Source: Victivallales bacterium (lineage in GTDB: Bacteria > Verrucomicrobiota > Lentisphaeria > Victivallales > UBA1829). From it: a stretch of 64,000 nucleotides of DNA. The notes beneath the pieces were generated by a model. That model was given only the letters and a program-made list of their open reading frames with translations. It was not told where the DNA came from and ran no database searches. Where the stretch lies: contig JAZUCU010000002.1 of NCBI GenBank assembly GCA_045639325.1, positions 21,287 through 85,286 of the forward strand. The letters are read 5' to 3'. The translations under genes and the position numbers were made by a program. Below, piece after piece: positions 12,700 to 21,760 of this stretch (position 1 is its first letter; each line of letters starts with the position of its first letter).

Positions 12700-12727
12700 A
12701 CTTAACATAATATATATTATGCGACGT
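12700..12727 (-). other. dif: Chromosomal dif site (XerC/XerD recombination site)
   Basis: The - strand reads ACGTCGCATAA-TATATA-TTATGTTAAGT (11-6-11), versus E. coli dif GGTGCGCATAA-TGTATA-TTATGTTAAAT. KOPS polarity inverts around it. Confidence 0.93.
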
Positions 12728-12850
12728 AATGAATTCTCATAAAACACCCCGTAGAGCCACGAAAGGTAATGACCCGATCAAGAACCCGGAAGATGGAATA
12801 TCAGCGGTCAGAGACGTGTATTATGCAGTTTCGTTTTTTACCAATTTCAA
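12716..12850 (+). repeat. 135-bp direct repeat, copy 1 (begins with the XerC arm)
   Basis: 132/135 identical to 21626-21760 by manual alignment. Confidence 0.97.
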
Positions 12851-12891
12851 AAAAGAAATGATAAAAATTAAAAAAACTGATTAAGGTCTAT

Positions 12892-12960
12892 CCCCGGGAA
12901 ACTTTTTCCGGATCATGCAGCACTCAACCGTGTGCATGGATCCGGAGCCGTTTCCCGGGG
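12892..12960. other. Long imperfect hairpin downstream of the pIV-like gene (candidate packaging signal or terminator)
   Basis: ccccgggaaac pairs with gtttcccgggg. Inner tccggatcatgca pairs with tgcatggatccgga (one bulge). Confidence 0.6.
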
Positions 12961-12973
12961 TCCCAATCAGTTA

Positions 12974-14242
12974 TTATTTATCAGATTTCTTTTTTGGAAT
13001 AAAATCAGGATCAACAATTCTGTTATGGATAGATTGCGGATCATTATAAGGGTTTTTGAAGTCTAGTTTAAAAACCCGACAGTATACTTGCATATTAGTA
13101 AGTTCTGATTTCTTGCCAAGGGTTAATACATCACTAATCGATGTTGTACCTGAATCTCTCCGTAACTCTCCAATAAGATATATTTGGCCAGGGATGACAT
13201 TACAATCGGTAATAAGGGATGCTTTCTGGGTTTGAGGATAATAATCGACGTATCCGACGATCGAAGAATCTTCTAAATTAGTTCGTAAAATAGCACCATT
13301 AGAAGATTCCTGCAGGAGGACTTTGAGAGTTAACCCTATGTCTTTATAATCAACTCCTGTTGTAGTTACGGTTCCGGAATCTGATACTGTTTTACGGGGT
13401 ATAGGTACAGTCGTTGCATCCGTCCAAGTACTTTCTTTATTAGCTAACATCATAAGCAAAGGTGAAGCTACTACATGAATAAAAGAGGAATTGCCATTGA
13501 GTATCAATTTGAAATTTTGACCAATGTCTTGAAAGTCACCTGTGACGCCCTGCCCTTTTGCTATATTATAGGAAAGTTCACCAGAAGTTACTACTTGAGC
13601 GCCACCAGTAAGTTCTATATTATTTTTTTTTAGGAGAATAAAATACTGAACAATCCAAGTATCAGGAGAAGCATTGTCTAAAATGTCTAGTAAGGATTGA
13701 ATTTTAGAAAGATTCTCAGCTGTATCAGAAATAAGAATTAGATCAGCTATTTGTTTGATTTTACCTGTCTCAGAAAGATAAATCTGAAGTGAATCAGATA
13801 AAGTTTTCGAATCAAAATTTTTAATTTGTCTAGCTAAAATACCTCTATCGTCTTTTGTGAGTTTACCAAGAAATACAGTATTTCCTATATATACAACAGA
13901 TTGATCAAGACGACGAGCAACAGTAGATATTATTTCTGAAGCTGTAGCATTTTTGAATTCTCCAGTTACAAAATTCTTTTCAAGATCCTGAGGAAAGATA
14001 ACGCCTAAATTAGTTGAGTCAGAGAACCATCTAATGAAAGATAAAAAAGGCATCTTATTTAGTGATACTGATATTGTTTTGCGTTTTGAAACAGAATTAG
14101 AAGATATTTTTGTATCTGAAGAAGGAATGCGATATAATTCAATAAAGGGATCATTGATAGATTGGCTGCATCCGGATAATAGAACCGTCACTAAGAGTGT
14201 AAGAGCGATTATAAGTGTCGATAAAAACAACTTTTTTACCAT
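12974..14242 (-). CDS. Phage secretin (pIV-like; type II/III secretin family)
   Basis: Lipoprotein-like signal (LLSGC), N-domain pattern, and the secretin-like segment PIPRKTVSDSGTVTTTGVDYKDIGLTLKV. Lies directly after the Zot-like gene. Confidence 0.8.
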   Translation of the reverse strand: MVKKLFLSTLIIALTLLVTVLLSGCSQSINDPFIELYRIPSSDTKISSNSVSKRKTISVSLNKMPFLSFIRWFSDSTNLGVIFPQDLEKNFVTGEFKNATASEIISTVARRLDQSVVYIGNTVFLGKLTKDDRGILARQIKNFDSKTLSDSLQIYLSETGKIKQIADLILISDTAENLSKIQSLLDILDNASPDTWIVQYFILLKKNNIELTGGAQVVTSGELSYNIAKGQGVTGDFQDIGQNFKLILNGNSSFIHVVASPLLMMLANKESTWTDATTVPIPRKTVSDSGTVTTTGVDYKDIGLTLKVLLQESSNGAILRTNLEDSSIVGYVDYYPQTQKASLITDCNVIPGQIYLIGELRRDSGTTSISDVLTLGKKSELTNMQVYCRVFKLDFKNPYNDPQSIHNRIVDPDFIPKKKSDK

Positions 14243-15422
14243 AAAAGAGGGATCCTTTGTTTGAAAATTGAAAACCTACACCAAATTTAAGACCTCCAAG
14301 GGTCTCAACATAATTATTGGATATCATTACTGGAGATAATAATAATAAAGCATCTTTAACATCTTGATCTTTAGAAGATTCGTTAGCCTTTTTGGGTTGA
14401 ACAGTAGAAGATTTAGGTTGCTCAGGGCTTGATGATCTAGAAGAAACAATACTGGAAGACGGTGACTTTTTAGATGATACAGAAGTTATAAAAAAAGAAA
14501 GTAAGTAATTTAAACCGCCAAACAATAAAACCCAAGATAAAAATATAATCAAAAGGGAGCGTAAAAAAATAGTATAGAAGTTCTTACGAATAAACCAGAG
14601 AAGCAACCCCAATCGAGAATACTTTTGATATTCGTATAACGGAGATCTGTTCTCATCTATATTTTGGGTTGAATTCTCTTTTTCTTGATGTGAAGCAGAA
14701 AAAGAATTGTAAAATCTAAAATATTCTGGAATAATAAAGAATCGCCTTGAATAATTGATTTTCCAGCGTCCAGAACCTGTTTTTTTCTTCTCAATTTGAA
14801 ATACCGTTTTATGGAAATCACCAGTAAAAGAAGCTTTGAGTTGATACCAATCATACATTAATATCTTGAAAAAAGGATCACGAGTATGGTCTGCAGGATA
14901 TATTTCATAGCGTAAACCAGCACGGTTAACAAGACAAGAATGGACAGCTTTAAGATCCTGAGTTAAACCTTCAAATGTGCAGCCTCGATGACGAATCTGT
15001 CCAAGAAATTCATCCCATTTATCAATATAATCTTGACTTTTAGAAAATGAAATAATTTCATGGATTTCGTCAATTGCAATATGTGCGCCTTTAAGATCAG
15101 TATCTGAAAAGTAATCCCACGGACCGGATGTTTGATTACGCCAAGATACAAGAACATCATCAGGAATTATATATATACGTTTCTTAATATCGTCAATAGT
15201 TAGAGTCTTTTGAGATTTAATGAAACGAGACAAGAATGTTTTAGATGTAGAGTTTTTTCGGGTATAAACTTCTTCAGCAATTGCATCGACATTCAAAGGA
15301 AAATTAGATATATGAATTCCGTCAGAATTGACAAGAAATTCATCAACAAGAAAACGCGCAGCGCGGATATAAGATTTACCTGCCCCAGGTTCACCAGTAG
15401 TGATACAAATTACGGAAGCCAT
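14151..15422 (-). CDS. zot: Zot/pI-like morphogenesis ATPase
   Basis: Walker A TGEPGAGKS at the N-terminus, Walker B HIAIDEIH, RHRG..TQ motif, single C-terminal TM. Confidence 0.9.
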   Translation of the reverse strand: MASVICITTGEPGAGKSYIRAARFLVDEFLVNSDGIHISNFPLNVDAIAEEVYTRKNSTSKTFLSRFIKSQKTLTIDDIKKRIYIIPDDVLVSWRNQTSGPWDYFSDTDLKGAHIAIDEIHEIISFSKSQDYIDKWDEFLGQIRHRGCTFEGLTQDLKAVHSCLVNRAGLRYEIYPADHTRDPFFKILMYDWYQLKASFTGDFHKTVFQIEKKKTGSGRWKINYSRRFFIIPEYFRFYNSFSASHQEKENSTQNIDENRSPLYEYQKYSRLGLLLWFIRKNFYTIFLRSLLIIFLSWVLLFGGLNYLLSFFITSVSSKKSPSSSIVSSRSSSPEQPKSSTVQPKKANESSKDQDVKDALLLLSPVMISNNYVETLGGLKFGVGFQFSNKGSLFYGKKVVFIDTYNRSYTLSDGSIIRMQPIYQ

Positions 15423-15426
15423 TACA

Positions 15427-20397: not shown

Positions 20398-20470
20398 ATT
20401 CTGAAAGTCAAGTCAATTTGCAAAAAAAATTAAAAAAAGTATATTACAGATGAAAATCAGGAGTAATAAA

Positions 20471-20689
20471 ATGAACAATAAAAAAGATCAACTCGAAAGA
20501 TTCAATGCAGCCTTATTGGAAGAAAGCACGGAAATCGCTTTTACCCAAGCGCAAACAGCAAGAATATACGGATGTACAGACGCATACATACAACAATTAC
20601 TCAAAGCTGGAAAATTGAAACTTGTGGTGAAAGACGGTCGAAACAAAGTCTCTGCATTATCACTTAAAAAACTGATAGAGGAGGAATAA
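20471..20689 (+). CDS. Excisionase-like (HTH_17-type) small DNA-binding protein, divergent from the phage operon
   Basis: FTQAQTARIYGCTDAYIQQLLKAGKL winged-HTH pattern. AGGAG lies 7 nt before ATG 20471. Confidence 0.65.
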   Translation: MNNKKDQLERFNAALLEESTEIAFTQAQTARIYGCTDAYIQQLLKAGKLKLVVKDGRNKVSALSLKKLIEEE

Positions 20690-20692
20690 AAA

Positions 20693-21190
20693 ATGTCTAC
20701 TATAATCATTTTTATAATAATTTTCCTGCTACTAATTGTCCTCGGATGTTTCAAAAGAAAAGAAATCCTTGTTTTTCAAAACAAACTTGAAGAAATACCC
20801 GTATATGGAAAAATGCTTTTAACAAAAGATGAACTTAATTTATATCAAAATTTGAAACTGATATTACCAAATGATACAGATATATCCTGTAAATGCCGGC
20901 TAGAAGATATTATCGGAATTGACCGCAAATGTAAAAATTACAATCAAAACAGAAACCGAATCAAAAGCAACCATATTGATTTTGTAATATTTAATGCTAT
21001 AACTGGTAAAATTGAATTCGTCATAGAATTAGACGGTAACAGTCATAATTTACCAGGACAGAAAGAATCCGACATAAAAAAAGATATTTTTTTGAAAAAT
21101 GCCAAAATAAAACTTATCCGGATTAAAGCACAAGAAAAATATAATCCAGAAATGATAAAAAAATATATAGAAGATAGTCTTGATAAATAA
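20693..21190 (+). CDS. DUF2726-like protein with an N-terminal membrane anchor
   Basis: LLTKDE..Y..L, CRLEDII, HIDFVI, IELDGNSH, KDIFLKNAKIKLIRI. Confidence 0.75.
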   Translation: MSTIIIFIIIFLLLIVLGCFKRKEILVFQNKLEEIPVYGKMLLTKDELNLYQNLKLILPNDTDISCKCRLEDIIGIDRKCKNYNQNRNRIKSNHIDFVIFNAITGKIEFVIELDGNSHNLPGQKESDIKKDIFLKNAKIKLIRIKAQEKYNPEMIKKYIEDSLDK

Positions 21191-21491
21191 AAAATAAACA
21201 ATCGAAGAAAATCCGAATGCAGTCCTGTTCACTCCGTTCACTGGCTGCCGGATTTCTTTCAAAGGTCCAAAATGGCCCCTATTGCCCGCTATTAGAGCGC
21301 GCGGGCGCGATAATTGTGGATGCACGCGCACGCGCACGTATTCAAATCGGAAAACCCTTTTTCTGCGGAAGCCGGTGTATCCGGCTTGTTTCGCTGCTTA
21401 ATGCAGCGCCCCCCTCCTTTTCGGTTTTTCCTCCCTGGATTGACTACCGACCAAAAGTCCGGAGATGAAGAACAATCGTGATCACAAAGCC

Positions 21492-21648
21492 GAGAATTCA
21501 TTTCATCGCATAATATCGGTTATGCCATATCCGGCACCGGTTCCCGGTGACCGGCTATTTCATAGCAAAAAAAAGCACCGCGAACCGGTGCCAATTCCTG
21601 GGGGGGATAAGACAAAACAAGACCCATTATGCGACGTAATGAATTCTC
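21492..21648 (-). other. Folded attP-like structure at the prophage right junction: two inverted XerC arms around a structured loop
   Basis: gagaattcatttcatcgcataat (21492-514) is the reverse complement of attatgcgacgtaatgaattctc (21626-48) at 20/23 positions. Inner stem ggcaccggttc/gaaccggtgcc. Confidence 0.8.
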
Positions 21649-21760
21649 ATAAAACACCCCGTAAAGCCACGAGAGGTAGTGACCCGATCAAGAACCCGGA
21701 AGATGGAATATCAGCGGTCAGAGACGTGTATTATGCAGTTTCGTTTTTTACCAATTTCAA
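21626..21760 (+). repeat. 135-bp direct repeat, copy 2
   Basis: 132/135 identical to 12716-12850. Confidence 0.97.

Follow-up and report, generated by a model that had tools for sequence, protein, structure and literature searches.

A filamentous prophage with its own secretin at the dif site of a rumen Lentisphaeria bacterium, and its probable entry by way of host XerC and XerD

How does a filamentous phage that carries no integrase come to lie in the chromosome of a bacterium from a phylum far from Vibrio? The question is raised by a stretch of contig JAZUCU010000002.1 of a Victivallales bacterium (assembly GCA_045639325.1; here called the window, meaning all 64,000 nt that were analysed), in which an earlier reading of the sequence alone (the original prediction) had placed a complete, integrase-less filamentous prophage with its own pIV protein next to the chromosomal site dif. 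Profile searches, the flanking repeat and tests of the dif site uphold that claim: the 8,910-nt unit at dif is an intact, integrase-less inovirus with its own secretin. We further consider it probable that this inovirus, of a lineage confined to the Planctomycetes-Verrucomicrobia-Chlamydiae (PVC) superphylum, is a CTXphi-type IMEX (an integrative mobile element that makes use of Xer) that entered the dif site of a rumen Lentisphaeria (Victivallales-like) host by means of the host's XerC and XerD.

The prophage occupies window positions 12717-21626 (8,910 nt) and is AT-rich, as had been said of it, with a GC content of 34.4% against 46–47% in its flanks; the host assembly (3.45 Mb) has 47%. A direct repeat frames the unit (12716-12850 versus 21626-21760, 3 mismatches in 135 nt, copy starts 8,910 nt apart), and the borders drawn earlier are right to within a few bases. 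Scans of 12000-22500 for tRNA, tmRNA and Rfam families found none in or near the prophage, and an RNA gene as the target behind the repeat was rejected on the tRNA and Rfam results. There is no tyrosine recombinase on the prophage's contig. Genes were called by profile search, using family cut-offs for Pfam and E-values for PHROG families (Table 1). Because these searches support them, the calls of Zot/pI, secretin, Rep_trans and pVI stand, so that the unit has both the assembly ATPase and the rolling-circle initiator of an inovirus. The pIII-like, pVIII-like and small hydrophobic open reading frames (ORFs) are probable from where they lie, from features of their sequences and from their conservation among relatives, although profile searches gave no family match for the pIII-like protein and no coat-protein family match for the 80-aa pVIII-like ORF. 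The genome is compact, within the 5–15-kb range, with a series of short genes on one strand, eleven ORFs being co-oriented, and a small coat ORF (coat features judged by inspection). On the minus strand the order is the 128-aa protein, Rep_trans, the 94-aa and 40-aa ORFs, pVIII-like, the 49-aa ORF, pIII-like, pVI-like, pI/Zot and secretin, and the plus strand carries a 79-aa helix-turn-helix (HTH) protein and a DUF2726 protein. The Ff phages (M13/f1/fd) have the same order (ssDNA-binding protein/Rep, small hydrophobic ORFs, pVIII, pIII, pVI, pI, pIV), a phage-encoded secretin and a structured intergenic region after gene IV; unlike the prophage, they do not integrate and use a Rep of a different family, and the protein similarity between the two is visible to profile searches only.

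The site at the left border is a true dimer-resolution site (dif). On the plus strand, 12700-12727 reads ACTTAACATAA-TATATA-TTATGCGACGT, the reverse complement of the classic order of XerC arm, 6-bp centre and XerD arm, and it is the sole full copy in the assembly. Because the GC skew was noisy, we relied on strand-skewed octamers, counted over the 17 contigs whose skew is clean. The octamer with the strongest strand bias in the genome is GGGCAGGG (143:6), the same word as the main FtsK-orienting polar sequence (KOPS) of E. coli. On contig C2, to which the window belongs, 8/8 occurrences lie on the plus strand up to C2:33419 and 13/14 on the minus strand from C2:34834; dif (C2:33986-34013) sits between the two runs, and no other contig of the genome has such a convergent flip. 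This suggests that GGGCAGGG is an FtsK-orienting motif common to this Lentisphaeria genome and Proteobacteria. Within the window, it occurs at 5289, 10235, 10638, 11465 and 12133 (plus) and at 23875 and 24888 (minus), clustering near dif. The 28-mer dif, with up to 3 mismatches, was found in 30/41 relatives across the order, nearly always once per genome, with a reversed control giving 0. The host also encodes FtsK with a gamma domain and three tyrosine recombinases, all on other contigs, among them XerD (330.3 bits, cut-off 329.6) and a XerC-like paralogue (319 bits, just under its cut-off); the XerC-like and XerD genes are on contigs C26 and C35. A rival location, C38:5224/5334, was rejected as the true dif, as it has two inverted full sites and lies inside a uniformly oriented replichore. 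Its two complete dif-like sites (C38:5224-5251 and 5334-5361, 110 nt apart) sit between a glycosyltransferase-like gene and speA with no phage genes nearby, and similar inverted pairs occur 7–12 times in the relatives G012 and G020 (genus g10). Such pairs may be miniature Xer-hairpin elements or relics of phage attachment sites (attP).

The two ends of the prophage fit an exchange at the XerC arm. At the near junction, the phage's ACGTCGCATAA is fused to the host's TATATA-TTATGTTAAGT to give a perfect dif, with the XerC arm (12717-12727) from the phage and the centre and XerD arm from the host. At the far junction there is a hybrid site with a 9-nt spacer, predicted to be non-functional, and just inside it a second, inverted attP site, which on the minus strand (21530-21503) reads ATATGGCATAA-CCGATA-TTATGCGATGA. 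The two sites are linked by a structured loop of ~76 nt. With the circle junction restored, the attP strand folds into a hairpin of -44.7 kcal/mol (z = -7.4), and the attP hairpin of a circular relative has z = -8.6. The arrangement recurs in seven distinct phages, with a spacer of 9–11 nt at site 1 and of 6–7 nt at the inverted site 2. Across these phages the XerC arm ACGTCGCATAA is invariant at site 1, while the outer halves of the XerD arms vary by compensatory changes (CTTAT/ATATG, CGTGC/GCACG, TAAAT/ATTAA and TTGAT/ATCAA), as do the attP flanks (GAGAATTCATT versus ATGATTTGTT), and 9–11 of 11 arm positions pair. A model with the D arms of the two sites unpaired was rejected, as allowing for the 9-nt spacer puts the arms in register. 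We regard the compensatory pattern in seven phages as the strongest computational evidence for the hairpin as the probable functional form of attP.

This is the layout known from CTXphi, in which attP1 has a 12-bp spacer, attP2 a spacer of 5–7 bp, and the two are inverted and ~90 bp apart; there, the (+) single-stranded DNA is the substrate, XerC alone performs the exchange, and the insertion is irreversible once double-stranded (PMC4246890). The prophage shares with CTXphi, and with the CTX-type IMEXs YpfPhi and CUS-1Phi, the state of an integrase-less inovirus inserted at the chromosomal dif. Like CTXphi, it has no recombinase of its own, XerD and a XerC-like gene being encoded elsewhere in the host genome; it has two inverted, pairing dif-like sites, one with a long and one with a short spacer, which would form a forked ssDNA hairpin with a bulged, unequal centre; its crossover would lie at the XerC arm; one side keeps a rebuilt dif, which allows arrays; and remnants or tandem copies lie beside it. 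The hybrid site with its inverted partner at one end and dif at the other were found in the window and in two related prophages (L017 and L048). The long spacer differs, at 9–11 nt in this phage group versus 12 in CTXphi. A double-stranded route through a single dif-like attP, as in VGJphi or TLCphi, would make the second, inverted site incidental, and the perfect XerC arm and poor XerD arm of site 1 are indeed reminiscent of TLCphi and the gonococcal genetic island. However, VGJphi-type elements have a single double-stranded attP of ~29 bp with a 6–7-bp centre that partly matches dif, and the prophage does not fit this type because its crossover site has a 9–11-nt spacer and a conserved inverted partner. 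That spacer, the same range in all seven phages, misfits the 6-bp Xer core and has in common with dif only about its first base, and the partner is conserved together with its spacing and its compensated pairing. We therefore consider this route highly improbable.

By analogy with CTXphi, entry would begin with the packaged (+) strand, corresponding to the window's minus strand, in which the two inverted dif-like sites would fold into a forked hairpin, XerC arms together and XerD arms together, with the unequal spacers (9 and 6 nt) forming a bulge. At the XerC arm's border, XerC would then exchange a single strand between the hairpin and dif, and replication would fix the insertion, which should be locked because neither end could recombine back as double-stranded DNA. 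What can be read directly in the window is a perfect dif rebuilt on the XerD-arm side and a hybrid site with a 9-nt spacer at the far end. The proposal that Xer hijacking operates in this lineage is strongly indicated, the conserved CTXphi-type attP being its basis.

Related phages are found in circular form and in other hosts. A large protein collection contained pI homologues in 109 clusters. Two contigs whose pI is 71% identical show overlaps of 141 nt and 55 nt between their own ends, in agreement with assembler k-mers, and represent a single 8,331-nt genome in two circularly permuted forms. In this circular relative (L012) the repeat block leads directly into attP site 1, followed by the loop and then site 2, and because of this contiguity the 135-nt block is phage and not host sequence. 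A 42-kb metagenome contig (L017) holds a 70–85%-identical prophage at the same locus of a related host, L048 is a prophage in a host with other flanking genes and an identical 28-bp dif, and further prophage cases are L023, L024 and the IMG/VR contig L053. In all, L017, L048, L023 and L053 place related prophages at an identical 28-bp dif in other hosts and beside other flanking genes. A circle junction had been suggested as a check of the prediction, and a circle or tandem junction was found in metagenome run X7, where the evidence, as for all metagenomes here, consists of assembler contigs and speaks to presence only, not ratios. One X7 contig is a precise empty site, skipping exactly 8,910 nt to leave dif, one block copy and the HAD (haloacid dehalogenase) gene. 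A second joins ~21760 to 12904 and runs through site 2, loop, site 1, block, hairpin and secretin gene; it is a circle or tandem junction, of a phage at least 95% alike to that of the window. Bovine and other gut samples often contain the host flank, and the phage more rarely. In other metagenome strains the conserved attP and GC-rich region adjoin phage bodies that are under 90% similar, and run X24, possibly an RNA data set, contains contigs of a related phage.

The 135-nt repeat is not a product of the reaction, because an Xer crossover does not duplicate 135 nt. Its right copy is a remnant of an earlier, mostly deleted phage insertion, as in tandem CTX/RS1 arrays. In a genome of the same genus (G003), an identical dif followed by the block lies at one contig end, and a second block copy, on a different contig, has next to it DUF2726, then a fragment of the secretin gene and the host genes pepT-HAD-holA; this second stretch amounts to a larger decayed prophage. 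In L048 the repeat is only ~26 nt. The simplest reading is that phages inserted one after another at the regenerated dif and that the older copy then decayed. The same repeat opens another route, in which the present prophage was inserted by homologous (RecA) recombination between its terminal block and a remnant at dif, and Xer acted only in an earlier event. A Campbell crossover in the block predicts the observed structure exactly, and the X7 empty-site contig keeps one block copy. In addition, remnant and resident phage are 97.8% identical in the window and 100% in L017, while the blocks of the two genomes are only ~75–80% alike, a within-genome match that suggests repeated homologous exchange. 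Set against this, the remnant itself requires a first Xer-type event, the ~26-nt repeat of L048 is too short for efficient RecA action yet comes with the same junctions, and clear purifying and compensatory selection acts on the attP hairpin. As the account of this insertion, RecA recombination is therefore unlikely, and Xer-mediated entry at dif remains our preferred reading.

In the window as in L017, two host species with different phage variants, the remnant, a 135-nt stub, has one and the same conserved motif, (A)TTGGTAAAAAACGAAA, at its start. Because of this common start and the match with the resident phage, there is a hint that the stub is a functional escape device rather than debris, an idea we hold only tentatively and think doubtful. 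Rolling-circle replication starting in the outer block copy and ending in the inner one would copy out the locked prophage or, alternatively, homologous recombination between the block copies would loop it out. Sample X7 contains both the precise empty site with one block copy left and the circle or tandem junction. RNAalifold found no covariation support and no conserved structure in the 135-nt block, and a conserved structure or origin there was rejected on that ground. If the idea holds, a 135-nt stub would fill a role for which CTXphi requires an entire tandem prophage or RS1.

Several points weigh against Xer-mediated entry of a functional phage. RecA recombination of the double-stranded replicative form at a pre-existing 135-nt block gives an identical structure, and Xer catalysis, the ssDNA substrate and the virions are all things that we infer. 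The contig GC skew around dif is too noisy to place the terminus. A simple pattern scan of Planctomycetota members of the pI family found no comparable dif-like sites, and it may be that only the Victivallales-associated branch uses the mechanism. Lastly, the leader used by relatives is lost from pVIII through an A8 tract, and this copy could be impaired. The tract (window 18345-18385, minus strand) is A7 in L011, L017 and the X21 and X24 contigs; with A8, the upstream pVIII start ends after 10 codons and the longer leader of the relatives is cut off. A new in-frame ATG at 18345 (GTC in relatives) restarts pVIII 4 nt past the stop with a workable signal peptide, and possible readings of the allele are a compensated frameshift, a phase switch and an assembly error in the homopolymer. 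This frameshifted leader, together with the low phage share in metagenomes and the presence of the pI family in only 6/251 genomes of the order, would fit a decaying, non-productive remnant. Against decay, there are the restart just described, the other 11 ORFs, all full-length relative to the circular relatives, and the X7 junction of the phage at least 95% alike. We judge a dead element improbable, if a little less so than the RecA route, and continue to read the prophage as an intact phage.

Beyond the core genes, several features merit comment. The 128-aa protein in the gene V position had been called SSB-like (single-stranded DNA-binding), which was not confirmed: no profile matched, the AlphaFold model had a pLDDT (predicted local distance difference test) of 52 from a shallow alignment, and the best Foldseek hit (E 0.18) was not significant. 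The Foldseek list, without a significant match, consists mostly of SSB, RPA and PriB proteins of the oligonucleotide/oligosaccharide-binding (OB) fold, and the protein is possibly an OB-fold ssDNA-binding protein. The pIII-like protein is 45–50% identical to the copies of relatives and has, at 17203-17538, repeated Cys/His-rich motifs ahead of a long coiled coil. The 79-aa HTH protein is likely a phage regulator. The DUF2726 gene, present in L017 and L042-44 and absent from L011 and L012 (the circular 8,331-nt relative), may be superinfection or defence cargo; the PADLOC matches of this gene and of the HTH protein were no more than marginal. The DUF2726 gene is a movable accessory, with copies at L009:544-1065, L017:4343-4864 and L042:1766-2272, and lies beside the HTH gene in some phages and beside the secretin remnant in G003. 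The palindrome after the secretin gene may be a terminator or a packaging-signal-like hairpin, and the GC-rich block is a candidate origin region. A 51-aa ORF in the repeat (12729-12884) was rejected as a gene, as its start codon is missing in relatives. The prophage's neighbours are a host oligopeptide ABC (ATP-binding cassette) ATPase gene (11298-12362) and a HAD hydrolase/holA pair (21839-23546); exact-protein look-up of the flanking host genes returned no records.

Table 1. Positions of the prophage's genes, attachment sites and repeats in the window.
Feature	Position	Strand	Details
Chromosomal dif, regenerated, 28 bp	12700-12727	-	ACGTCGCATAA (XerC arm), TATATA, TTATGTTAAGT (XerD arm)
Left repeat copy, terminal non-coding block of the phage	12716-12850	-	Between post-secretin hairpin and attP XerC arm; aligns across phages
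Long imperfect palindrome directly downstream of secretin stop	12892-12960	-	Inverted repeat; kept in L012, L017 and G003
pIV-type secretin, 422 aa	12974-14242	-	Pfam Secretin 36.9 bits (cut-off 27.5); phrog_1012 'protein IV of M13' 7e-14
pI/Zot assembly ATPase, 423 aa	14151-15422	-	Pfam Zot 23.1 bits (cut-off 20.3); phrog_197 6e-18
pVI-like minor coat protein, 141 aa	15427-15852	-	phrog_306 2e-8; weak DUF2523 match
pIII-like adsorption/minor coat protein, 688 aa	15856-17922	-	By position; signal peptide, Cys-rich region, coiled coil, C-terminal membrane anchor
49-aa hydrophobic ORF (pVII/pIX-like by size and position)	17919-18068	-	62% conserved in L011 and L017
pVIII-like major coat precursor, 80 aa	18103-18345	-	Leader ...SGFA|AEG, hydrophobic core, basic C-terminus
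40-aa hydrophobic ORF	18437-18559	-	92% identical in L011 and L017
94-aa protein	18559-18843	-	Label 'RHH-like' (ribbon-helix-helix) not verified; only unnamed PHROG phrog_8031, 2e-4
Rep_trans rolling-circle replication initiator, 358 aa	18840-19916	-	Pfam 39.6 bits (cut-off 29.6)
128-aa protein in gene V position	19933-20319	-	No profile match
79-aa helix-turn-helix protein	20450-20689	+	HTH_17 0.005; PHROG matches to excisionase/DNA-binding families
DUF2726 (nuclease-fold) accessory gene	20693-21190	+	Pfam 69.5 bits (cut-off 24.7)
GC-rich (51%) non-coding phage block	21200-21500	-	Conserved in relatives
attP site 2, inverted relative to site 1	21503-21530	+	TCATCGCATAA-TATCGG-TTATGCCATAT, 6-nt spacer
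attP site 1 and far junction	21607-21637	-	XerC arm ACGTCGCATAA (21637-21627), 9-nt spacer TGGGTCTTG, arm TTTTGTCTTAT (21617-21607)
Right repeat copy, flanking the host HAD gene	21626-21760	-	Same block next to dif in the X7 empty-site contig

The host is a Lentisphaeria/Victivallales-like rumen bacterium, in line with the Lentisphaerota host that had been thought probable: the MutL encoded in the window is 52–57% identical to proteins labelled 'Lentisphaerae bacterium' or 'Lentisphaeria bacterium', 52–53% to Victivallales metagenome-assembled genomes and 36% to a Sedimentisphaerales genome. When 185,579 species genomes were scanned, members of the pI family were almost confined to Victivallales and Planctomycetota (Sedimentisphaerales, Phycisphaerae, Pirellulales and Planctomycetaceae), the exceptions being a short contig binned as Lachnospiraceae, probably by mistake, and a Zixibacteria fragment of 1.3 kb. 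Two pI-family genes lie 11–19 kb apart in one Sedimentisphaerales chromosome (L028/L030) and in a Phycisphaerales chromosome (L035), which may be tandem or neighbouring prophages. IMG/VR holds six contigs with a pI of this family (31–49% identity), one of which ends at the same dif. The phage proteins are highly divergent, as had been proposed: neither pI nor pIV had a tblastn match in 50,697 GenBank phage records, and there is no BLAST-detectable kinship to any GenBank phage. CTXphi, moreover, has a gammaproteobacterial host, whereas this phage resides in the PVC superphylum; CTXphi uses the EpsD secretin of its host, unlike this phage, which has its own; and in place of toxin cargo there is the DUF2726 accessory gene.

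The earlier statement that no characterised PVC inovirus was known is not supported in that form (PMC6813254, Supplementary Table 4; PMC11361711). Inovirus prophages have been listed for Lentisphaerae (2, among them one in Victivallis vadensis), Planctomycetes (5) and Verrucomicrobia (4) (Roux et al, 2019; PMC6813254, Supplementary Table 4); like the present one, they are computationally detected inoviruses of the same phyla. In that study, att sites were identified through tRNA or integrase context only, and Xer and dif are not mentioned (PMC6813254). In addition, 'Phage-WC36-1', induced from deep-sea Lentisphaerae strains, was reported as a 6.3-kb 'inovirus', an incomplete assembly identical in two strains (eLife 2024, PMC11361711). 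Like the present phage it is reported to be associated with Lentisphaerae, with filaments seen by electron microscopy, and unlike the present prophage it was reported outside the chromosome, without a described integration site (PMC11361711). Reviews of Xer-exploiting elements give proteobacterial examples only (Vibrio, Yersinia, E. coli, Xanthomonas, Neisseria, Enterobacter and Legionellales), and a literature search combining IMEX or XerC with PVC taxa returned nothing relevant. On whether such elements were already described in the host's lineage, the answer is thus divided: inoviruses of this type are catalogued in the phylum, while their integration mechanism there appears not to have been described in the literature searched. 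Overall, the observation behind the original prediction is confirmed and its interpretation partly supported, being largely right with the novelty overstated.

Apart from its integration, the phage is an ordinary inovirus, and its most intriguing puzzle is the terminal stub. The integration, if read correctly, extends CTXphi-type Xer exploitation to a phylum far from Vibrio, that is, to anaerobic gut and rumen Lentisphaeria of the PVC superphylum, and would make the ssDNA-hairpin route either ancient or easily reinvented. For a phylum in which hardly any genetics exists, it also yields a KOPS-like motif (GGGCAGGG), a natural substrate of Xer and the sequence of dif, and the compact, integrase-free module for site-specific integration could be tried as a genetic tool in Victivallales.

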